From the IMG/VR virus record IMGVR_UViG_3300028888_000001: a stretch of DNA of 64,000 bases; one strand, given 5' to 3'. Below, piece by piece: positions 5,594 through 18,920 of the stretch. The position numbers and the translations under genes are program-made. The notes under the pieces were generated by a model. The model was not told the DNA's origin and made no database searches. It was given only the letters and a program-made list of their open reading frames with translations. Source of the stretch: a virus (Duplodnaviria; Caudoviricetes). The number at the start of each line of letters is the position of its first letter. Position 1 is the stretch's first letter.

Positions 5594-7942
5594 ATGGCTG
5601 ATGATAAGCAAATTAGATTAGGGCCAATTAAAAGGCTCGCTAATCTTATTCAGGGTAATAACGATGCTCTATATAAAACAACGTATTATTCTGATCCTAC
5701 AAATAGACAGCAGCTGCAGGCGTTGAAAACAGATATCACAAATACAATTAAAGATATTATGACCAATAGTACAGATAATACTGGACAACCAAATATCTCT
5801 AAATTGTATGAAAGATTATTGCTTGGGTTTCAAAACGATAAGAGCACTGTAGATGATTTTGAACGTATATTTAGCGATAATGATTTTGTCAATAACCTTA
5901 CGGCTTCTTACCTAGACAATAGATGGGTAAGAGCAGTAGATATGGAAATCGACGAGATACTAAAATATATGCCAAAACTACAAGAAGCTTTGGATACTAT
6001 TACAGATAACGTTCTCTCTGCAGATAGCTTCTCTAAAGACTTTTTAAATATAAAAAATACTCTTAGCAATGGTGATACTACAACAGAGCAATTTGATAAG
6101 AATGTAGAGGATCTTAAAAAAGATTATAAACTTCTTAAGTTGATAAAAGAAATATATGAGGACACCAGCAAATATGGTGAATGCTTTATATACTGTGTGC
6201 CATACGACAAAGCAATACAGAAATTGTTAAATAAGAAGTTTGACAATCGTAATGTAGTTGTTAAAACTAATTTCGGCGAGGGTACGATTATAACTGAGTC
6301 TGCAGAGATGGGAAAATCTAAAGTAGATATACCGGATGGATATCAATTAGATAATTCTGTAGACAATTTTAATATGAATATCACCATAGAATCTGGTATA
6401 ATTTCTTCTGTTGTAAATACAGAGAAAGCCGCTAGAGAAAAACTACAGAAAGTTAATGAGCAATCTATTTATCATGAAGCTATAGACAGCTATGATAATT
6501 TAGGAAGAACAGCATGGGCTTATAATAGAACAATGGATGTAGATGCTAATCTTGGTTCTAAATATCCTAAGCATACTAGATTTGATCAAACCTTAGGAGA
6601 TTCTTTAGAATTGCCAGATGATGCAAATATTTCAGCACAAGATGGATTAACAATGACAAATAAAAATGGAAAAATAAAATCCATGAATGGTGTTATTGTT
6701 AAGAAGCTTAAAAGAGACCGTGTAGTTCCAATTATTATAAATGATATTTGTCTTGGATATTACTATTTTGAATTTGATAATGATCTTCAATTATTTGATG
6801 AGAAGCAATCCTCCACTGGTATGGTAAATACTATTACTGGTTTAAGATCCAATGGAAGATCAGAAGCTTTTGATTCAATGGAGCGTCGTATGCAACTATT
6901 GAGAAGTATTGCTTCTCAGCTTGCGGATAAGATAGATAACAAATTTGTAGACAATAACCAAGATCTTAAAAAAGAAATTTATTATATTCTTAAGTATAAT
7001 GATGATTTTGCTTCAAATGCTAGTGCTTTAAATAATATTAGGGTATCATATATTCCACCGGATGATATTCATCATGTGTATTTTGATATCAATGAAGATA
7101 CCGGTAGAGGAGTATCAGATCTTATGCTTTCTCTAGTTCCGGCTAAATTATGGGTTGCTATTTATGTAACTAATTGCTTGGCTATAATGACTAGAGGCAA
7201 TGATAAGAGAGTTTATTATGTCAGACAATCTGTAGAATCTAATATAAGTAAGACTCTATTGAAGACTATAAATGAAATTAAGAAATCTAACTTTGGTATT
7301 AGACAGATTGAGAATATCAACTCTGTTCTTAATATCACTGGTAGATTTAATGACTATATTATTCCTAGAGGCGCAGATGGGCAATCTCCAATTGAATTTG
7401 AAGTTATGCAGGGTCAGCAGATAGAAATAAAAACAGAATTATTAAATCTGCTAGAAGAATCTGCAATTAATCCAACTGGCGTACCAATAGAGATAATTCA
7501 AAATAGACAATCTCCAGACTATGTTATGCAGCTTACAATGTCTAACTCTAAATTCTTAAGATTTGTATATGATAGGCAATCTCAATTCCAAGAGATCATT
7601 AGCCCATTATTAACAAAGATTTATGATTTAGAGTACGCTACCAAAGACATGGTAACGTTATTACTACCACCGCCATTATTTATCAATGTGACTAACACTA
7701 ATCAGCTTATAGTTAATACTAACGAATATTGTGATAATATAGTTAATATTATATGTGCTGATGAGCAAGATGATCAAGTTAAGAATAAATTTGCTAAAGA
7801 ATTAAAGATTTATTCTCTTGGATCATATTTAAATATGGCTAACATTATGGAGATTTATAACAAAGCTAAACAGAATGTTACAATGGATGCCATGAAGCAG
7901 AATATAAATTCTGATGACGTAGGTGGCGATGACAATTATTAA
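5594..7942 (+). CDS. Portal protein (T4 gp20-like, jumbo-phage type)
   Basis: Portal-like segments (LQEALDTITDNVLSAD, KYGECF, RGNDKRVYYV, DYIIPRG, TGVP); late-type promoter 5555-5567. Confidence 0.7.
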   Translation: MADDKQIRLGPIKRLANLIQGNNDALYKTTYYSDPTNRQQLQALKTDITNTIKDIMTNSTDNTGQPNISKLYERLLLGFQNDKSTVDDFERIFSDNDFVNNLTASYLDNRWVRAVDMEIDEILKYMPKLQEALDTITDNVLSADSFSKDFLNIKNTLSNGDTTTEQFDKNVEDLKKDYKLLKLIKEIYEDTSKYGECFIYCVPYDKAIQKLLNKKFDNRNVVVKTNFGEGTIITESAEMGKSKVDIPDGYQLDNSVDNFNMNITIESGIISSVVNTEKAAREKLQKVNEQSIYHEAIDSYDNLGRTAWAYNRTMDVDANLGSKYPKHTRFDQTLGDSLELPDDANISAQDGLTMTNKNGKIKSMNGVIVKKLKRDRVVPIIINDICLGYYYFEFDNDLQLFDEKQSSTGMVNTITGLRSNGRSEAFDSMERRMQLLRSIASQLADKIDNKFVDNNQDLKKEIYYILKYNDDFASNASALNNIRVSYIPPDDIHHVYFDINEDTGRGVSDLMLSLVPAKLWVAIYVTNCLAIMTRGNDKRVYYVRQSVESNISKTLLKTINEIKKSNFGIRQIENINSVLNITGRFNDYIIPRGADGQSPIEFEVMQGQQIEIKTELLNLLEESAINPTGVPIEIIQNRQSPDYVMQLTMSNSKFLRFVYDRQSQFQEIISPLLTKIYDLEYATKDMVTLLLPPPLFINVTNTNQLIVNTNEYCDNIVNIICADEQDDQVKNKFAKELKIYSLGSYLNMANIMEIYNKAKQNVTMDAMKQNINSDDVGGDDNY

Positions 7943-8009
7943 TAAAAATAAAATTTTCAAAATATATAGAGGGTGGATTTCTCCACCCTCTATTAAATAA
8001 TCAATTATG

Positions 8010-8690
8010 TTAAATCTTATCTTTATCTGGAAGCATCTCGTATGCTTCAATGATTTTATCGTTAATGACTAGATTAACGAATTTATCTTGTGCTGCAATC
8101 TCAAGCTTTCTCTCTTCGTTTGCTTTGATGAAGTCTTGCGGATTATCTATGTCTAGGCTATAATCAGTACCGTGATCGAATTCCCAGTATGGTGTTCGAT
8201 CTATTAACTTAGATAGAGTTTCAGCTTCAAAGATTCCAGTTTTTATAGTTTCATGAGTTCTCATAAACCACGCAAATCTCACTGCTGCTTTAAGACAACT
8301 AATTTCTGTATAACCTTTATTGGATGTCCTATCTAAAAGCTTATACCGACATTCGCCGTTCCATTTTTCTTTATTAAACTTCTTATCAAAATAATTATAT
8401 AACTGGAGAACTTGCTCTGAAAGCAGACTATTGAAAAAATCATTACATAGAACCACTATAGACTGCTTTTGTTTATAGTCGATTCTTTCATAATACTCTT
8501 GCCTATATCCAATTGTGTCGATAAACGTTATAGCGTCTCTCACTGCAGGTAGATTTTGTCTAGTATAAAACGATGGCTGGCTAATCTGGTCTATATAATC
8601 TTGCAGTTTATCAATTACGGTTATGTATTCGCTGTTGATAGATTTTAATAATGAATCGATTATAATATTGTCTTCCCATTTGTTATCCAT
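8010..8690 (-). CDS. Hypothetical early protein
   Basis: RBS aaggag; TATATATTATA at 8749-8759 (-). Confidence 0.75.
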   Translation of the reverse strand: MDNKWEDNIIIDSLLKSINSEYITVIDKLQDYIDQISQPSFYTRQNLPAVRDAITFIDTIGYRQEYYERIDYKQKQSIVVLCNDFFNSLLSEQVLQLYNYFDKKFNKEKWNGECRYKLLDRTSNKGYTEISCLKAAVRFAWFMRTHETIKTGIFEAETLSKLIDRTPYWEFDHGTDYSLDIDNPQDFIKANEERKLEIAAQDKFVNLVINDKIIEAYEMLPDKDKI

Positions 8691-8926
8691 CTTATTGCTC
8701 TCCTTTAATTTTTTATTTATATATAATGCACATGAAGTGTATCATGTTTATAATATATAAATAAAAAATTAATTACTTAAAAGCCTTCATTATTAAGCTT
8801 TATCTCCAGTTCCGCCACCATCCAATTGATTTGATATTATATACATCAATAATATAGAGCACGGATCATCACACTTTAATAATTTTTTACCAAGTCAATC
8901 TACTTGTTTCTACTTAAAGCCTGCTT

Positions 8927-10750
8927 TTAGTCATTAAGATCTGTCAGATAATCACTAGTAACAATATCAATACCGAGTGAAAACCATTCTTTGACATTGC
9001 TAGCACTATTAACAGAGTATACGCTACAAAACATGCCGGCTTTATGAATAGTATCGATCAGTTCATGCGTTATACCGGCTCCAATATATCTATCAAAATC
9101 GATACCCCAATTATCAATTTTTGAACCTTTTACGTAGTTTATTACTTTGTTTGCGTCATCGACCGAAGCGACTACTTGCATCGTTGGTGCTTTTGTTATT
9201 CTCCTAAGAGTATCAGAACGCATCGTATCGCCGATGAACATATAATCACTATCGCAAAAACCATACTCATTGAGGATCGATACTATTTCTTTTACTTGTT
9301 CAACCGATGGTCTGATCTTCCATTCGATCAATGGAACACAGTTATAGGTTTTACAAATTTGTAAGTATTCTTGAAACGTTAGAATTTTTTGATCTGATAT
9401 GACACCAGTAGTCTGATTTACGTAATACAATTCCTTGATCTGAGCGAGCGTTAACGCGCTTACGTTGCCGGTACCGTTCGTAAGAGTATCAACTGATATG
9501 TCGTGGAAGCAGACCCATTTATTATCAAAAGTCAATCTTATATCTGTTTCTATAGCCCATGCCTTATTAATTCCGGCTGTTCTGAATGATAACTCACAGT
9601 TTCCTATCGGTTGTGAATCTGATCTCATGCCTTGATGCATTGCAAATTTAATCCTGCCATTATTCCACCATGGTAATTTATTAAATAATGTTACAGATAT
9701 TTCATCTTTCAAAGCATAATCGGTTCCAGACTTGTACGGAATAAAAGGTTTTACATAATTACTCTGTCGTAGTTGAAATTTCCTTATATGCCATGTATTT
9801 CCACCTGAACCACTTGCAGCCGCAATCGACACCTTACTTATAGTTTTATTTATATTACTTGTAAGACTAATTTCAGTCCACGATGAAGCACTATTTTCGA
9901 TGTATTTCGACATCGTACTTTCGTCGGTATAATCAAAATATATTCTAAATCCATTGCCGGTTTGAGTAGTTTCTCCGTCAGTGTATCCCTCAAACGAAAT
10001 CGTCCAAACTTGATTTTCCGAAAAAATATTTTCTAATATGGTCTTAGCGGGAATCGAATTGGAAAGACCATGGTATACATAAAATCCGTCTACTAACTCT
10101 TTTGTCCATCCTCCAAAATCAAGAAGAAAATCTTCGTCGAGTACATTTCCTGTGAATTTTGTTGTCTGTTGGATCAAATCGTTTGTATTTTTTGCCATTT
10201 TTCTTGCAATTTCATCGACGTACACAAACGACGGAGTAAAAGAAGATTCAACAGTCCCCTTATTCATCATTATATTTTTAAGGTAAAAGTTGTTATTTGT
10301 AAACGATCCAGCCTGAAAATAAATGCCTATAATGGTTTTATTAGCAGTAGATGTATACACGGTATGTGTATAAACACTTGCTCCGTTACCAAGACTTGTA
10401 CGCGAAGCAGTATTATCGGAATATACAAAGCCAATATACAATCCGCTCCCTGTTGTTCCAGCAGCGCCATCGCATAAATAATCTAACGATAACGTATATC
10501 TAGTATTAATTTCTCCATTGAATTGCATTGGCGAAGCCTGCGGGAAGCCTTTTTGGGCACGTAATGCTTGCGTTTTTACAGATCCATCACTTTGGAGCAC
10601 GAAAATATTCTCATTAACTAATGTCAAAAATGGGAAAAGATTTGTATCACTTTTTTCTGTCGATATGACCATATTCCCATTATAAGTGCTCTTTAAGTCA
10701 TCAAAAGACTGTGTTAAATCTTCCTTTAAATCTTCAAAATCGTTAGAAAG
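8927..10750 (-). CDS. RBS-less cassette: two carbohydrate-binding-like beta domains plus C-terminal glycerophosphodiester phosphodiesterase (GDPD)
   Basis: AMHQG, IETDIRLTFD..VCFHD, LIEWK, IVTSD GDPD motifs. The frame stays open upstream of the ATG at 10672 through LSNDFEDLKEDL to a stop at 10787-10789; no RBS. Confidence 0.8.
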   Translation of the reverse strand, partial: LSNDFEDLKEDLTQSFDDLKSTYNGNMVISTEKSDTNLFPFLTLVNENIFVLQSDGSVKTQALRAQKGFPQASPMQFNGEINTRYTLSLDYLCDGAAGTTGSGLYIGFVYSDNTASRTSLGNGASVYTHTVYTSTANKTIIGIYFQAGSFTNNNFYLKNIMMNKGTVESSFTPSFVYVDEIARKMAKNTNDLIQQTTKFTGNVLDEDFLLDFGGWTKELVDGFYVYHGLSNSIPAKTILENIFSENQVWTISFEGYTDGETTQTGNGFRIYFDYTDESTMSKYIENSASSWTEISLTSNINKTISKVSIAAASGSGGNTWHIRKFQLRQSNYVKPFIPYKSGTDYALKDEISVTLFNKLPWWNNGRIKFAMHQGMRSDSQPIGNCELSFRTAGINKAWAIETDIRLTFDNKWVCFHDISVDTLTNGTGNVSALTLAQIKELYYVNQTTGVISDQKILTFQEYLQICKTYNCVPLIEWKIRPSVEQVKEIVSILNEYGFCDSDYMFIGDTMRSDTLRRITKAPTMQVVASVDDANKVINYVKGSKIDNWGIDFDRYIGAGITHELIDTIHKAGMFCSVYSVNSASNVKEWFSLGIDIVTSDYLTDLND

Positions 10751-10824
10751 TGAATTAGGCTTACGCCTAATTCTATTATTTTTTGATTAATGACGTATTT
10801 TTCATTTGATCTTTCTAACGATTT
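10737..10824. repeat. 14-bp perfect inverted repeat CTTTCTAACGATTT (10737-10750 / 10811-10824) flanking a 60-bp spacer with a hairpin
   Basis: Read directly; both copies encode L-S-N-D in the frames of the two divergent cassettes; spacer hairpin gaattaggc-ttac-gcctaattc at 10752-10773. Confidence 0.85.
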
Positions 10825-12331
10825 AATAGATATAAATGAAGAATTACATCAAAATTTTCCTACATATGGTAATTTATTCACATTAGAAAATTTTACTGAA
10901 AAGAAAATTATTCTTAATGGAGAAATAACCACAAATGGTACTTCAGATGCTTACGGATATTCAGATTATATTCCGGTTATAAAAGGTAAAACGTATTATG
11001 TAAGTCATTGTTTATCAGCTCCAGGGGCATTATATGATAAAAATAAAAATTATATAAAAAATATATACACAAAACCAAGTAATATTAAATATGGAAATCC
11101 GATTACATTTGTCTGCGAAGCTTCTGGTTTTGTAAGATTAAATGTTGAACTAAAACATTTAAATTATTATGTATTTTGTGAAGGTACAGAGCCAACCAAT
11201 ATACTCCCTAGAAGAAAAATATATCATCCTGATTTATTAATAGATTCTTCGCAGATTAGCGATTATGAATTTGAAATTGAGCATGGTAATCTTTTTAATA
11301 GCAATACCGTATCTGAACTTGGCTATTATATAAATAAAAGCGGTAATATACAAGAATTAGAAAACTATGTGTATTCTGATTATATTCCAGTTAAAGCCAA
11401 TACACAATATATAATATATTTATGCCTTACCTCCCCAGGGGCAATATATAATACAGAAAAACAATATATAGGTCAAATACCTAACGATACAGCAACACAT
11501 GATTTTGTTTTTTCAGCACCAATAAATGGATATATCAGAATTAATATTCATAAAAATAATATCCACATATTTACAGTATATGAAAAAAATTATCAAAACA
11601 ATATACCATATGGTATGTTATTAATTAAAAATTTGATGATAGAAACATCACAGATTAGCGATTTTAATTATACAGTATCCAATAGTGTTTGGAAAAATAA
11701 AACCATTAGTATATTTGGTGATAGTAGAACATGGTATCATAGTAAAAGTTATAACGATAAAACAAAAACAGAGTGGAAAGATAAAGTATGTGTAGGATTT
11801 CAATATTATATGGAAAATATTTTACATTGTAATATTGATTCTCAAGGAGTTTCTGGCGACACATCAGTACAAATTTGTGAGCGCATTAAAGCATATGATT
11901 TTTCTAATACAGATGCTATCCTTATTGAAGGTGGTGTTAATGATTTTATAAAATCATCGTCTGTAACTATTGGTCAAATTCAACCAATATCTAGCAATTT
12001 TGATACTAATACAGTGTATGGTGCATATCAAAGCGCTATAGAATATTTGCTACAAAATTATCCAACTTTATTAATTTATATGGACATACCAGCTATAGCT
12101 TGGTCGTCTGCTGGAGTTTTCCCGTATGATATAGCAAAAATTAAGAGTGAAATAGCGCAATTATATAATTTACCATATATTGATTTATATAAAAAGTTAG
12201 GTATTAATGAGTTAAATAGGGATTATTACTATTGCGATGATGTTGAACAAACTAATTGGCGATTACATTTTAATGATTATGGTAATGAATTAATAGGAAC
12301 AAAGATAGCACAATTTATAAACACATATTAA
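10790..12331 (+). CDS. RBS-less cassette: duplicated beta-rich domain plus SGNH/GDSL hydrolase
   Basis: Repeated YSDYIPVK..PGA(L/I)Y module; IFGDS, GVSG, GGVND and LHFN..G SGNH blocks. Confidence 0.85.
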   Translation: MTYFSFDLSNDLIDINEELHQNFPTYGNLFTLENFTEKKIILNGEITTNGTSDAYGYSDYIPVIKGKTYYVSHCLSAPGALYDKNKNYIKNIYTKPSNIKYGNPITFVCEASGFVRLNVELKHLNYYVFCEGTEPTNILPRRKIYHPDLLIDSSQISDYEFEIEHGNLFNSNTVSELGYYINKSGNIQELENYVYSDYIPVKANTQYIIYLCLTSPGAIYNTEKQYIGQIPNDTATHDFVFSAPINGYIRINIHKNNIHIFTVYEKNYQNNIPYGMLLIKNLMIETSQISDFNYTVSNSVWKNKTISIFGDSRTWYHSKSYNDKTKTEWKDKVCVGFQYYMENILHCNIDSQGVSGDTSVQICERIKAYDFSNTDAILIEGGVNDFIKSSSVTIGQIQPISSNFDTNTVYGAYQSAIEYLLQNYPTLLIYMDIPAIAWSSAGVFPYDIAKIKSEIAQLYNLPYIDLYKKLGINELNRDYYYCDDVEQTNWRLHFNDYGNELIGTKIAQFINTY

Positions 12332-12391
12332 ATCTTAATTCATTTGTATATTATATTAATAAGAATATACTCTTAAGGAGGTTTCTTATTA

Positions 12392-13417
12392 ATGTATAAC
12401 GATTTTAAAAATGAATTCATATCAGATTTACAGACATTAAATCTTAATTTAACGAAAGATCAAATGAATAAAATATTAGCGGTGCTTGACGGCACCGCTA
12501 ATAATTATGACATTTTAAATCGTGCTAGTGTAAATAGACAGAAAATGACAAATGGTATTCCACAATCTGTATACGACTATATTCAGTGCAAAAAAGCAGA
12601 AGGCCTTTCTAATGATACGCTTTATATCTATAGAATCATGCTTGAAATATTCTTTAGGGCTGTACAAAAACCGCCTGAATATATTGAAGCTCAAGATATC
12701 ATGAATTTTCTAAGGGACTACCAAATACAAAATAATATATCTAATCGTACATTAGATAAATACAGACAGTATATATCTTGCTATTTTGTCTTTATACATG
12801 ACTATGGATATATCTCTAGAAATCCATCACGTCAGGTTAAGAAAATAAAATATGAAACCAAGCCCCAAGCCATTCTTACAGAATATGAAACTGAGCTTAT
12901 TAGAGGCGCATGTAGATCAAAAAGAGAAATAGCAATAATAGAATTCTTTTTATCTACAGCTTGTCGTGTTGGTGAATTAGTTAAAGTAAAAATTTCTGAT
13001 ATAAATTGGGATACTGATGAGGTATTATTATTTGGTAAGGGCTCTAAATATGGCGTTTCATTCATAACTCCAAGATGTAGATATGCATTAGAACAGTACT
13101 TAAATTATAGAAAGCTAATCAACCCAAATGAAAATTCAGAATATCTATTTATACGGGAACGGTATCCATATACGTGCTTAACCGTCAGAGGTGTTCAAGA
13201 TATTATAGAACGATTGATGAGTCGTATTTCTGAAGTGCATAAACGTATAACACCTCATTCATACCGTAGAGCTACAAGCACTAATGCATATCTTAACGGT
13301 ATGGATCTTGAAGACATTAGAGGATGGTTAAGACATTCTGATATAAGGACTACAGAAATATATGTAAAGAATTCAACGACTCATATTCACGGAGAACATA
13401 GAAGATTTGTTCATTAA
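12392..13417 (+). CDS. Tyrosine recombinase (XerD/integrase family)
   Basis: TACRVGEL, GKGSK, HSYRR, LRHSDIRTTEIY catalytic set; RBS aaggagg; TGTATATTATA at 12345-12355. Confidence 0.93.
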   Translation: MYNDFKNEFISDLQTLNLNLTKDQMNKILAVLDGTANNYDILNRASVNRQKMTNGIPQSVYDYIQCKKAEGLSNDTLYIYRIMLEIFFRAVQKPPEYIEAQDIMNFLRDYQIQNNISNRTLDKYRQYISCYFVFIHDYGYISRNPSRQVKKIKYETKPQAILTEYETELIRGACRSKREIAIIEFFLSTACRVGELVKVKISDINWDTDEVLLFGKGSKYGVSFITPRCRYALEQYLNYRKLINPNENSEYLFIRERYPYTCLTVRGVQDIIERLMSRISEVHKRITPHSYRRATSTNAYLNGMDLEDIRGWLRHSDIRTTEIYVKNSTTHIHGEHRRFVH

Positions 13418-13483
13418 AAATAAAACACCCCATAGGGATTGCTCCCTATGGGGTTATATTTCATCTTAATATTATTTTTTATA

Positions 13484-14575
13484 TTACGGATTGGTAGTGT
13501 TAATTGGATTACCATCACCGTTGGTATCATCAGAAATATACATAGGCGTACTATTGCTATAAGTCTGAGTATTATCACTAGCACTAAAGCTCGGATATTT
13601 AGACTTATCGGAATCAGATACACCATAATTAGTAAGAGTCTTGGTGATGATATCTGTGCCGCTATAGTTAAAGTCGTTGCTGTTGATGATAATCTGACGA
13701 GCGCCAGCATCTGTGCTAAGCAGGAAGCTAAGAATGTCTTGAGCAGCCATATCGATATATCTAGACTGTACTGGATAACCGCTAAACTTAACTGTAACTT
13801 CTTTCTTCTGGATATCGCCCTTGGTGTAGTTATACATAGAAGTATCTGCACTATTGAGCTGGCATCCAATTAACAGATAAGCAGACTCTACCTTACGCAT
13901 GGTATTGTCAGTAGCGATGAACAAGAATGTGAAAACTTCATGCTCAAAGCCTGGCTCCATGATACCGCTATGAATAAGTCCATGATAAGACTTAACCTGA
14001 GTACGAGGATCTTTAATACCAGACAGATAAAGCTTAGCAAACTTGGTAAGCGGAGAACCAGATTTCTCGTCATATGTAAGGCTAAATTCAGAAGCACTCT
14101 GCATATTAACCTTAGAAATTACATTAAGGCTATTCAGATCGTCACCTAGCGTAATTACTTCGGCTGACATATCTTCAAGCCCTTCAAAGCTCTTAAACTC
14201 ATACTCAACAATATGAGCCCAGTTACGTACAAGTTTTTCATAGCTTTGGTTTTTCTTTACAAGACGCTCAATGAATTCTGGCATCTGGCAAATGATAAAT
14301 GCAGCGTAACCAGTTTCATATGGATTAAACTGAACGAGCTGTCCAAAATCAGGAACGCCACGCATCAGCCTATAACTTGTTACATCGTTAAAAGACTTAG
14401 TGTATTCATAATAATCGTTAACAAGACCACTTGTGTTTGGATTATTAGCTAGTGTTGTATCCGTAGACTTACTAACAGATGAACGTCTAGTTGTAGATAT
14501 TTTCGTGTTAGATCTACCGTTACCATTTACGCCACTAACAGCACTGTTCTGATCAGTCGTTGTAAATTTTGGCAT
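13484..14575 (-). CDS. Tail tube protein (probable)
   Basis: Directly downstream of the sheath; tube-like beta pattern (FSLTYDEKSGSP, EVTVKFSGYP). Confidence 0.65.
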   Translation of the reverse strand: MPKFTTTDQNSAVSGVNGNGRSNTKISTTRRSSVSKSTDTTLANNPNTSGLVNDYYEYTKSFNDVTSYRLMRGVPDFGQLVQFNPYETGYAAFIICQMPEFIERLVKKNQSYEKLVRNWAHIVEYEFKSFEGLEDMSAEVITLGDDLNSLNVISKVNMQSASEFSLTYDEKSGSPLTKFAKLYLSGIKDPRTQVKSYHGLIHSGIMEPGFEHEVFTFLFIATDNTMRKVESAYLLIGCQLNSADTSMYNYTKGDIQKKEVTVKFSGYPVQSRYIDMAAQDILSFLLSTDAGARQIIINSNDFNYSGTDIITKTLTNYGVSDSDKSKYPSFSASDNTQTYSNSTPMYISDDTNGDGNPINTTNP

Positions 14576-14595
14576 TATATGTCACCCTCCTTTCT

Positions 14596-16473
14596 TTAAG
14601 ATATTGCAATTACTCTAAAGTACTCTTCCTGAACGAAGTTACGGAATTGTACAATGATAGTTGCATAGAAGATATTATTGCTCTCGTAAGCCTCATCTGC
14701 CATGTAGCGAATAGAAACACTCTTAAACATGGTAGAATATTGGTTAACGATATACTGAGCGTCGCGGATGTACTCTTCAAGATCATCCCCATCCAGGAAG
14801 GTATATCTAGTTCTCGGGCAACGTGTGCGAATAGCACGAATAAGATCCTGAACAAGCATAATATTGCTAAGATAGGTAAGCTGAGTATATTCTTCAGCGT
14901 TGCAGTACATGGTTTCAAGTACTGGCATACCATCATAGTAATTCAGATAGTTGATATTATTATCAACAAGCTGCTGCTTCTGATCTTCATCAGGAGTTAC
15001 TACAGGAGTAAAGTTGATTGTTCCTGTGATGATTTCTGGGAAATACATGTCATTTGCAACACCAGCAAATGGACGCCCAATTCCGGTAGAAATATATTGA
15101 ACTAATCTCTTAGCAAGCAAGAATGGCATAGATACCGTAATTTCTTTCTTGGTGTAAGGATTAATCATGTTGAAGTAGTTATGATAGATAGCTACATAAC
15201 GAGAGCTATTGATATTACCAGCATTAGCAATAATATCACCAAGAGACTCGAACTTATTAGCTGTAGTATCACACAGGTCAGCTAAGAATACGCAATCTCC
15301 ACGGAACTCGCAAAGATCGATAACAGCATTCTTAACGTCCCAGCTATACATACAGTCAATAACGCATGTCGGCTTGAAATAATCGAGATCGTAAATTACA
15401 GGATCATACTGCTGAGATGTACGATCTTTACCGAATGCACCCTTTAACAGCTCATTGTATGCAGCTTGATTTTGCCATGGTGCAGAGCCGATTGATCCAT
15501 TAGATCCATTAGCAAGAGGAATCATAGAACCGTTAAGACTATAGAATTCTGTGATATCACTTGGCTTATTTGCTACCCACGGATCGGAAGTATCTTCATC
15601 TGCAGGATCACCGGTAATAACTCCGCCAAGTGTAACACCTCTGCGGTCACAGCCATTTACAAAGTCAAAGTTAATAAGAGTAAGAGCGCTGGCTCTGTAT
15701 GTATTAGCACCATTTGTATATGTAGCCTTAGTTGCAAGCTTCTTAACCAGTGCATAAATAGAATCCTCAAACATTCTAACCTGAATCTGGTTAGAGTTTG
15801 CATTAAGCTTATAGCTGATGCTCTGAGAAATACTATCAATAACAAGATCAGGATTCATGCAGAACTTGATAGTCTCAATAATTTCCTGATTCTCCCATAC
15901 TTCAAAGTTATAACGGATATAAGAAGAAGTACGGCTGGTAGAATATTCAGGTACGATACGAACGAAAAGATTAGAAGCACCGCGACCAGATGCTGTAATA
16001 GTAAACAGCGGGAAGTCTTCGATGCTGTCAATGTCGTTCTCAGGATCAAATTCACCAAAGTCGCCATAGCCAGCTTCAGCAGCATCATGAATATTGCCAA
16101 CATTTACAGCAGAAGCGGTGTATACGTACAGATAGTATCCATCATCTCCGCCATCTACAACACGTATTTTAACGGTAGTATTTGCAAGAGTAGCATCATC
16201 TGCCACCATACGTTTCCCAAACACATATCCGCCTAAACGAAGCACTTCGGCTGCTAACAGCTGCGGAATACCATGCTTAGCAAAATTAATGCCGCCCTTA
16301 CGCTGAGAGAACTGAGATAATCCATACATCATCTCCCAGTCCTCGGAGCCTTTATCGGATGTATAAGGAATCATGACTACTACAGCAGGCTCTGATGCCA
16401 CAGAAGACACGATTTCCTGAACTTGAGTCTGATCTACAATATCAAACCTTGATCTAGGATATCCTTTAGGCAT
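14596..16473 (-). CDS. Contractile tail sheath protein
   Basis: C-terminal sheath motifs (RGDCVFLAD, LVDNNINY, IIVQFRNFVQEEYFRV); late-type promoter 16540-16552. Confidence 0.8.
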   Translation of the reverse strand: MPKGYPRSRFDIVDQTQVQEIVSSVASEPAVVVMIPYTSDKGSEDWEMMYGLSQFSQRKGGINFAKHGIPQLLAAEVLRLGGYVFGKRMVADDATLANTTVKIRVVDGGDDGYYLYVYTASAVNVGNIHDAAEAGYGDFGEFDPENDIDSIEDFPLFTITASGRGASNLFVRIVPEYSTSRTSSYIRYNFEVWENQEIIETIKFCMNPDLVIDSISQSISYKLNANSNQIQVRMFEDSIYALVKKLATKATYTNGANTYRASALTLINFDFVNGCDRRGVTLGGVITGDPADEDTSDPWVANKPSDITEFYSLNGSMIPLANGSNGSIGSAPWQNQAAYNELLKGAFGKDRTSQQYDPVIYDLDYFKPTCVIDCMYSWDVKNAVIDLCEFRGDCVFLADLCDTTANKFESLGDIIANAGNINSSRYVAIYHNYFNMINPYTKKEITVSMPFLLAKRLVQYISTGIGRPFAGVANDMYFPEIITGTINFTPVVTPDEDQKQQLVDNNINYLNYYDGMPVLETMYCNAEEYTQLTYLSNIMLVQDLIRAIRTRCPRTRYTFLDGDDLEEYIRDAQYIVNQYSTMFKSVSIRYMADEAYESNNIFYATIIVQFRNFVQEEYFRVIAIS

Positions 16474-17406: not shown

Positions 17407-17655
17407 TTAGTTCTGAGCCTGAGCAGGCTGTACCTGCTGCTGTGCCATCTGCTGCATTTGCTGCGCAGCCAATACCTGCTGGGCCGCCTGGACCATGCTC
17501 TGATCCACTTTCTTCAGCTGGTGGTCAGTATACAGCTTGACGCCTAATGCTCCCACGCCGATACCGGCTGCCGCTGCAACTCCACCTACTAAGTAGGGGT
17601 TAACACCGTTGTTCCTGCTCATGCTCTTGCTCATAGTTGTTCTGCTTTCTGTCAT
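17407..17655 (-). CDS. Small membrane-anchored Q-rich early protein
   Basis: Hydrophobic G/A segment then poly-Q tail; own promoter, leader, RBS and terminator; GC-richer than its neighbours. Confidence 0.75.
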   Translation of the reverse strand: MTESRTTMSKSMSRNNGVNPYLVGGVAAAAGIGVGALGVKLYTDHQLKKVDQSMVQAAQQVLAAQQMQQMAQQQVQPAQAQN

Positions 17656-17816
17656 TTCAATTCTCCTTTCGCCCGCTCGTTTGGCGGGACTTACACATAA
17701 TTAATAGTATTGAATGATAAGTATTTCTACTCTCATTCACTTCTATAATATATAATCATCTAATTAGACTTTTACAAAAATTATACAGGGTGGATAACTC
17801 CACCCTGTATATATTA

Positions 17817-18920
17817 TTATGGATTCTGAGGATCGTCAGCATTATCAGACATAGTTTCAAGCTTATTTAATATAGCATCAGTCTTTTCTTTGATTGTCTT
17901 AATATTCTGGCTAGCACTAGCAGATTCTTCATCAAGAAACTGATTATACAGATAATCAATCTTATCACTATATGGCATATTACCAAGCTTTTCAATAACT
18001 TGAGAGAATCTTGTATTGGCATCATTTGAATGATTTGTTATAGCGCTTAGAACAGTATCTTTCGCTGTATTGGTATTAGCATTAACACTTCCTACAGCAG
18101 AAATGATATTATTATTTACACTAGTTCCAGCCTCGTTAATTTTAGTAATAATATTATCAAATGGAGTTGTATCATCAAGCTTAGATATAATATAAGCCAA
18201 TTTTTGAGTTGGGTCTAATTCATTAAGCTTATCTATGATATCATCTGTATCTGTTGCTAAATTATGAATAATAATATCCAGCTTAGAATTAAAGTCTGGC
18301 ATCATATTAAGTATTATATTTAACTTTTCAGAATCAGACATTTCTTCTACATCCACTGTGGGAGGAATATAGTTTTCATCATCCTCTGGGACTTCTTCTA
18401 TAGCTCTTATTGAAGCTATAAAGATTTTTCTTTTGTCAGATTTTCCAGCTACAGAACAATCCATGCCTATCCAAGCTGTAGCGACTGTCTCGTTAAATTG
18501 TCCGATGTATCTAGTGCACGTATCTGGAATACTAGAATCGATAATCTTCAATATACCGTTAGCTACTTTAAGACCGCCCTCGGTGGTATATGTAATAGCA
18601 TACTGTTTTCCGATTTCTAATACGATATCAGTATCGTCTTCTTCTTTTAGAGCATATAGCTTAATGCGTAACGATCTAAAAGCAAGAGTTTCGATATTTA
18701 CTATACGGCTAGCGATCTCACTTCTAACAATCTGACCTTCAGCTGGATCTACAGGAGTTTGAGGTACATAAAGATGTCCATCGTCAAAAAATTCAAGATC
18801 TGAAATAAATCTTCTAGGCGGTCTTCTATGATACCAGCTTGAATTATAATAAGCTGGATATGGTTGTATGAACACATTTCCATACATATAATGACCGTCC
18901 CTTACATAAGGTCCAGGCAT
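17817..18920 (-). CDS. Hypothetical coiled-coil, probably structural protein
   Basis: RBS aaggagg; in a late operon. Confidence 0.7.
   Translation of the reverse strand: MPGPYVRDGHYMYGNVFIQPYPAYYNSSWYHRRPPRRFISDLEFFDDGHLYVPQTPVDPAEGQIVRSEIASRIVNIETLAFRSLRIKLYALKEEDDTDIVLEIGKQYAITYTTEGGLKVANGILKIIDSSIPDTCTRYIGQFNETVATAWIGMDCSVAGKSDKRKIFIASIRAIEEVPEDDENYIPPTVDVEEMSDSEKLNIILNMMPDFNSKLDIIIHNLATDTDDIIDKLNELDPTQKLAYIISKLDDTTPFDNIITKINEAGTSVNNNIISAVGSVNANTNTAKDTVLSAITNHSNDANTRFSQVIEKLGNMPYSDKIDYLYNQFLDEESASASQNIKTIKEKTDAILNKLETMSDNADDPQNP

Follow-up and report, generated by a model that had tools for sequence, protein, structure and literature searches.

Two long open reading frames stand back to back next to a tyrosine recombinase gene in the window, a 64,000-nucleotide stretch of phage DNA, and both are without a ribosome-binding site (RBS). 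The question raised by this locus is how such frames could be expressed. A preliminary description had proposed a local switch between a GDPD and an SGNH cassette. Based on the analyses below, we consider it very probable that the pair is an outlying docking station of a genome-wide shufflon, which combines a head with 14 enzymatic tips, uses hairpin spacers and is rearranged by nested inversions. Phages of this kind appear to change what they bind through rearrangement of their own DNA.

Genome and sequence data

The window was found in a contig of 313,331 bp whose ends overlap by 127 bp, hence the circle of the 313-kb phage genome was regarded as complete. Sheath, tube and portal-like genes were detected by domain and profile searches and identified a contractile-tailed jumbo phage, which is probably lytic and probably infects a Gram-positive host.

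The probable source run, a sheep-gut metagenome containing the whole contig, was examined as Logan contigs, which drop rare variants. Related loci (L0xx) were examined in 20-kb views, from which the dispersal in relatives was also judged. Three goat-gut runs yielded short pieces at a depth of 2-5, none of which spanned a site. No instance was recorded when the head, spacer, recombinase and site patterns were scanned against IMG/VR and GTDB; the 71 back-to-back site matches of these scans were attributed to chance, as two long frames were never opened. Candidate joints obtained at a likeness threshold of 85 were discarded as noise of AT-rich matches. Additionally, a repeat family of 200-400 bp with 70-86% identity was observed in G000 (reverse strand of C1) at ~96.2, 137.7-142.2, 198.4-199.7 and 233.0 kb, which is consistent with several related introns.

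Structure of the cassette pair

The 14-bp inverted repeats and the 60 bp between them were located exactly where the preliminary description had placed them (Table 1), within the longest inverted repeat of positions 6000-16000 (36 nt, 83%). The same site opens both frames in the same register, which is shared by all 14 genomic copies, and the recombinase was confirmed to have its own RBS (AAGGAGG) and promoter-like motif.

The GDPD domain of c9 (Pfam match, E 2e-22) contains all of H372, E401, D403 and H416, and the middle part of the protein is head-spike-like, with a head-spike domain match slightly below the cut-off. The predicted structure of c10 (pLDDT 87) begins with an N-terminal helix, followed by two repeated beta domains and an SGNH esterase fold, in which the catalytic residues S305, N377 and H486 are invariant. 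As families, GDPD domains act on teichoic acid and SGNH domains on acetylated polysaccharide.

Table 1. Features of the window pair (window positions) and of the genome-wide set (G000:C1 coordinates)
Feature	Position	Strand	Remarks
226-aa gene, no known family	8010..8690	-	in the 5.5-kb block between portal-like and tail-tube genes
Silent cassette c9, GDPD C-terminal	8927..10750	-	607 codons from site; no start or RBS
Recombination site s9	10737..10750	-	reads L-S-N-D; core TAACGAT
60-bp spacer	10751..10810		one of six genomic copies; letter-identical to the s13/s14 copy 99 kb off
Terminator-like hairpin with T tract, within spacer	10752..10773	+
Recombination site s10	10811..10824	+
Silent cassette c10, SGNH	10811..12331	+	506 codons; SGNH E 6e-13
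Promoter-like motif (12345-12355) and RBS (12375-12381) of recombinase	12345..12381	+	common to second recombinase
Tyrosine recombinase rec2, 341 aa	12392..13417	+	Phage_integrase E 1e-24
Bidirectional terminator-like hairpin	13427..13454		closes inserted block against tail-tube gene
Sites s1, s2, s3, s4, s5	C1 296411, 296350, 284430, 279291, 272901
Sites s6, s7, s8	C1 272840, 266951, 266890
Sites s9, s10	C1 126791, 126730		window pair
Sites s11, s12, s13, s14	C1 34605, 34544, 27752, 27691
GDPD tips			c1, c9, weakly c2
SGNH tips			c3, c6, c10, weakly c13
Metallophosphoesterase tips			c4 (expressed), c12, c14; c11 35% identical to c4
Beta-helix tip			c5
Tips of unknown type			c7, c8

Distribution of the site in the genome

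Further copies of the site had been anticipated, and the 12-mer CTTTCTAACGAT was found to occur exactly 14 times in the 313-kb circular genome, when 0.07 occurrences were expected. The copies alternate strictly in strand, and each opens a frame of 506-1033 codons; together the frames amount to 32 kb, or 10.3% of the genome. An upstream open frame was present at s4 only, where the site lies in frame inside a real gene. This gene encodes a constant head of 391 aa, has its own RBS, is the third gene of an operon (G000:C1 280464-279292) and lies 152 kb from the window pair. Hence, the suggestion that the cassettes are silent parts of a constant N-terminal gene beyond the window was borne out, and the supposed choice between GDPD and SGNH became a 14-way, genome-wide one.

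The remaining 13 copies are silent enzyme cassettes without ribosome-binding sites. Shine-Dalgarno starts were found in none of the 14 cassettes within the first 150 codons, whereas 152 of 253 ordinary ORFs had one within 50 codons.

Twelve sites are arranged as back-to-back pairs across six near-identical 60-bp spacers, each with a terminator-like hairpin. The sites s3 and s4 form the ends of a 5.1-kb head module, whose three-gene operon closes with the head gene, and have eight additional bases in common. The circle is made up of seven segments, with cassettes reading inward at both ends (11.9, 6.4, 5.9, 140, 92, 6.8 and 44.5 kb), alternating with seven connectors, namely the six hairpin spacers and the head module. 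The spacer orientations are mixed (A,A,B,A,B,B). The TAACGAT core, with one variant TAACGAG, was present in every site found by a finder which itself demanded the core; conservation covers chiefly the core and about five bases toward the connector. The head module also carries a tRNA gene with the anticodon TAT (Ile; L002:17705-17780), which matches the AT-rich cassette codons (GC3 12-17% in 13 of 14).

Two quasi-palindromes at the 3' ends of the window cassettes (8914-8929 and 12329-12342) had been described as resembling the core of the site. Their letters are present as described, yet no cassette end has a copy of the site: the best match to the 12-mer had 3-5 mismatches out of 12 in 13 cassettes and 2 in one, and a search for a second site across the cassette 3' ends found none. 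The stretch at 12329-12342 extends into the recombinase upstream region, which is common to the second recombinase. The letters at 8914-8929, past the c9 stop, are similar to the final codons of c2 and to a stretch that follows a cassette in L063, and are possibly a scar of an earlier cassette. An integron was also considered and rejected, since the cassettes are without a conserved 3' site and the recombinase reached 60 bits for TIGR02249, whose cut-off is 265.

Recombinases

Two intact tyrosine recombinases, 83% identical, are encoded in the genome: rec2 in the window, and rec1 (C1 270988-269963), whose gene stands after c6. All six catalytic residues are kept in both (R192, K216, H289, R292, H315 and Y324 in rec2). 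A dN/dS of 0.07 was calculated for the pair, and rec2 represents a divergent deep lineage (dS 1.9). The rec2 protein is Xer-like, with SAM-like and catalytic domains and no arm-binding domain, and its best model is XerA-like. It stops 17 residues past the catalytic tyrosine Y324 and therefore has no Rci C-terminal domain. In most related loci a recombinase stands beside the cassettes; three near-complete relatives gave no recombinase match. The recombinases probably catalyse the exchange at the sites. In the scan index, neither the recombinase nor the head had a look-alike from another genome.

Several further observations were made around these genes. Codons 2-4 of rec2 (window 12396-12404) hold the site core in the cassette frame, probably by chance, because rec1 and the relatives are without it. 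Remnants of a recombinase 3' end lie directly past the c7 and c1 stops (G000:C1 269005-269101 and 299147-299189), which suggests that both cassettes formerly abutted a recombinase gene. A 199-aa HTH regulator in the rec1 segment (L002:3478-4077) is convergent on the recombinase and might control switching. In L126 and in the ERZ27256846 contig, a close recombinase stands right behind an HNH gene with the cassette pair missing upstream, an arrangement which could reflect either loss or a pre-insertion state.

Exchange at the site among relatives

Alternative joints within one lineage were recorded in a relative. In L065, L066 and L067 an SGNH cassette is fused to the head, when in L068, obtained from another sample of the same strain, the identical cassette stands behind the spacer hairpin. 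Downstream of the joint, there were 0 mismatches over 5814 bp, and the upstream arms had 8 bp in common at the joint, i.e. the 7-bp core and one base, which is too short for an assembler to invent the joint. As L068 includes just 49 bp of the spacer, this evidence amounts to one contig end.

Other comparisons pointed to the same site. The c11 cassette, silent here, is expressed as the tip of the L055 head (90% aa identity over all 842 residues, dN/dS 0.20). Its 3' flank has changed: homology stops at the stop codon, and no 3' site accounts for the change. L063 and L064 come from one metagenome; their sequences agree at 96.8% identity as far as the core and are unrelated beyond it, downstream genes included, as they run on into different parts of the genome. 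The head carries at least seven different tips across the loci examined, and in strains 93-99% identical, unrelated tips at equal segment ends represent replacement in place. L069 has the deaminase segment first, followed by the head, the recombinase segment and the spacer; compared with L055, both segments keep their orientation, and the spacer and the inverted head have exchanged positions, the outcome that two nested inversions give.

Alternative junctions were not seen in the probable source run, whose contigs, which drop rare variants, gave one arrangement: single contigs cross s3 and s4 unbranched at a depth of ~27. Where a strain had been assembled repeatedly, the expressed tip was also mostly constant (L050/L069/L070; L055/L056). 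Therefore, switching is either infrequent or selected.

The core site is common to a clade of gut jumbo phages. In L062 (13012-16393) two convergent cassettes meet or overlap without an intervening gene, forming a minimal segment. L054, a more distant 300-kb phage, has a like layout at 7860-8060 and 17600-17860, with a differing core (S-S-D) and its own hairpin spacer.

The predicted fibre

Matches to tail or tail-fibre PHROGs were obtained for the head (weak, E 3e-6), c11 and c13, as well as for c9 and c10, which both matched tail-fibre PHROGs. Atlas matches for the head were all <0.9 and gave fibre-like leads only. A trimer model of head residues 150-440 through the junction scored 0.75, compared with 0.00 for the best of three controls. 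The score mark was attained by 20 of 30 solved pairs and by 1 of 23 single chains, counts which apply only roughly to three copies and a custom alignment. The model runs agreed in at least 78% of the contacts, with pLDDT of at least 70 and heptad-spaced contacts across the junction. This model supports a trimeric fibre with a coiled-coil neck spanning the junction, but coiled coils of known structure may account for its score, by recall or by likeness.

Among 154 ordinary cassette homologues, 16 likewise have, ahead of their enzyme part, the neck motif that stands just before the site, and such genes are a likely source of new tips. The fusion protein is probably carried on the virion, and it is plausible that a switch of tips would alter the host range.

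Proposed mechanism and alternatives

It was proposed that the tyrosine recombinases would exchange strands at the TAACGAT core. A cassette facing the head would then be translated as a fusion through the trimeric coiled-coil neck, the fibre would receive one of 14 enzymatic tips (GDPD, SGNH, metallophosphoesterase, beta-helix or unknown), and the spacers would hold the remaining cassettes silent. A single inversion would bring any of seven cassettes to the head, and the rest would need two. By two nested inversions, the head and a spacer would trade places with the gene order restored, and a remote pair such as that of the window could be used. This route is probably the one taken, and the window pair is probably in use. 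In its fullest form, the proposal is a whole-chromosome shufflon, in which a 5-kb mobile head commutes among docking spacers up to 150 kb apart, the core order is kept, 14 wall-degrading tips are available and tips of other phages are captured via the core in the coiled-coil neck; towards this form we lean only slightly.

It is rather unlikely that the head reaches a new cassette via directly repeated sites or sister genomes, by means of excised circles or a double crossover, instead of nested inversions. The spacer variant of L068 is the one that faces a same-orientation site 10 kb off in L065, which gives the joint expected of an excised circle, but inversion with other spacer copies explains it as well, and the joint fits either route. 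The direct-repeat route also agrees with a 135-kb core that is not split in relatives, and with the missing Rci C-terminal domain of rec2, which is thought to enforce inversion (PMC11852207). However, the strict strand alternation of the 14 sites and the mixed spacer orientations are signatures of inversion, and the conserved genes within the segments would make excision products mostly inviable. The segment comparisons favour inversion too: the 45-kb RNA-polymerase/tape-measure segment (s14-s1), one end of which lies at s11-s14, is inverted relative to two relatives that do not have the system, a comparison which is only supportive because many breakpoints against distant relatives lie off the sites.

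Less probable again is a real system with an unreachable window pair, which as a recent insertion or a stranded outlier would be used only over evolutionary time. All 8 related phages have the tube gene next to the portal gene, when here a 5.5-kb block intervenes between collinear flanks, with the nearest other sites 92 and 140 kb away. The GC content of c9 is atypical (36% vs 25-30%), and a head fused to c9 or c10 was not found in the relatives searched. Against this reading, rec2 as well as the two frames and their active sites are intact, and a distant copy matches the spacer letter for letter. Among relatives whose recombinases are equally close, the spacers are unrelated, so the identity with the s13/s14 copy, despite the divergent rec2, indicates that the window pair has been in contact with the system, by which its spacer was probably delivered or homogenised.

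The 135-kb core with the window is collinear with that of two near-complete relatives without a recombinase, hence a single 152-kb inversion at s9 has not been fixed, and the core is unsplit in the relatives examined. The 12 non-window sites all fall in the part rearranged relative to those two. Since the core is collinear apart from the inserted window pair, the likely net event under nested inversion is the head and spacer trading places, and the pair would be reached by such a swap.

A decayed remnant or ordinary mosaicism without an active switch is very improbable. The single arrangement in the probable source run and the cassette turnover between strains at fixed positions would agree with it, but none of the 14 start-less frames is broken anywhere in their 32 kb, a silent cassette and both recombinases are under purifying selection, and the two states of one strain (L065-L067 vs L068) largely refute it. 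Least credible is the micro-inverton of the preliminary description, in which a flip of the 60-bp spacer would hand an ATG to GDPD or SGNH: the in-frame ATG at 10790 and the flanking inverted repeats suit it, but the ATG occurs in three of six spacer copies without a Shine-Dalgarno sequence and with a terminator-like hairpin upstream, a hairpin is all that the otherwise unrelated spacers of relatives have retained, and a genuine head gene exists.

Comparison with known systems

To our knowledge, phage fibre switches are compact and have 2 to 6 small tips, when here 10% of the genome is devoted to 14 full enzymatic tips round the chromosome. If the nested-inversion shufflon is real, long-range programmed rearrangement joins lytic phage biology, and a short recombinase may act over >100 kb. 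It would also provide wall and capsule enzymes as a natural library, all members of which share one trimer junction, for receptor mapping on uncultured hosts, and would warn that such cassettes are mistaken for stand-alone auxiliary genes by annotation pipelines.

Mu Gin, P1 Cin and p15B Min are serine invertases whose target is a local segment a few kb long. In these systems, as in our proposal, inversion switches tail-fibre C-termini, whereas here tyrosine recombinases and genome-wide sites are present.

Several features of a shufflon were found: a constant 5' part joined in frame to start-less 3' parts, more than two short sites (14, in strict alternation), a linked recombinase which, by its residues, is catalytically intact, and, in a relative, alternative joints at the site. 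The R64 shufflon with Rci and sfx (PMC11852207) likewise has partial frames reading inward at both segment ends, alternating sites and a tyrosine recombinase; its 7-bp asymmetric core may have a counterpart in TAACGAT, which our finder demanded. Its target is the plasmid PilV adhesin in a compact locus, whereas here the target is fibre-like, phage-encoded and dispersed; sfx has a conserved right arm, in contrast to a core with about five connector-side bases, and the extra C-terminal domain of Rci is absent from rec2, which ends 17 aa past Y324.

A reversible half-replicon rearrangement at short repeats was described for Eggerthella lenta, in which megabase inversions at a 16-bp repeat are linked to phage-host recognition (bioRxiv 10.64898/2026.04.24.720693). 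That case differs in concerning a bacterial chromosome and capsule expression, with no adjacent recombinase and no gene fusion. No dispersed or jumbo-phage shufflon was found in the literature covered, most subscription papers lying outside it, and the crAss002 paper describes no phage shufflon.

The Rin shufflon of Bifidobacterium prophages (PMC6109161) is a compact locus of a temperate phage, in which the constant gene is fixed and the five tips measure 95-100 aa. It has in common with this phage a phage-encoded tyrosine recombinase without an arm-binding domain, short asymmetric sites, and one constant N-terminus with alternative C-termini of a tail-associated protein, here fibre-like by prediction. 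In contrast to Rin, there are 14 tips of 506-1033 aa at sites as far as 152 kb from the head, the segments (5.9-140 kb) carry core genes, the spacers have hairpins, two recombinases are present, and the head module has sites at both ends and moves. Neither short TP901-1-like tips nor the 11-bp rix sequence occurs here; enzyme cassettes and a different site stand in their place. Hence, the system works like the Rin and R64 shufflons, and differs from them in its dispersed layout and mobile head.
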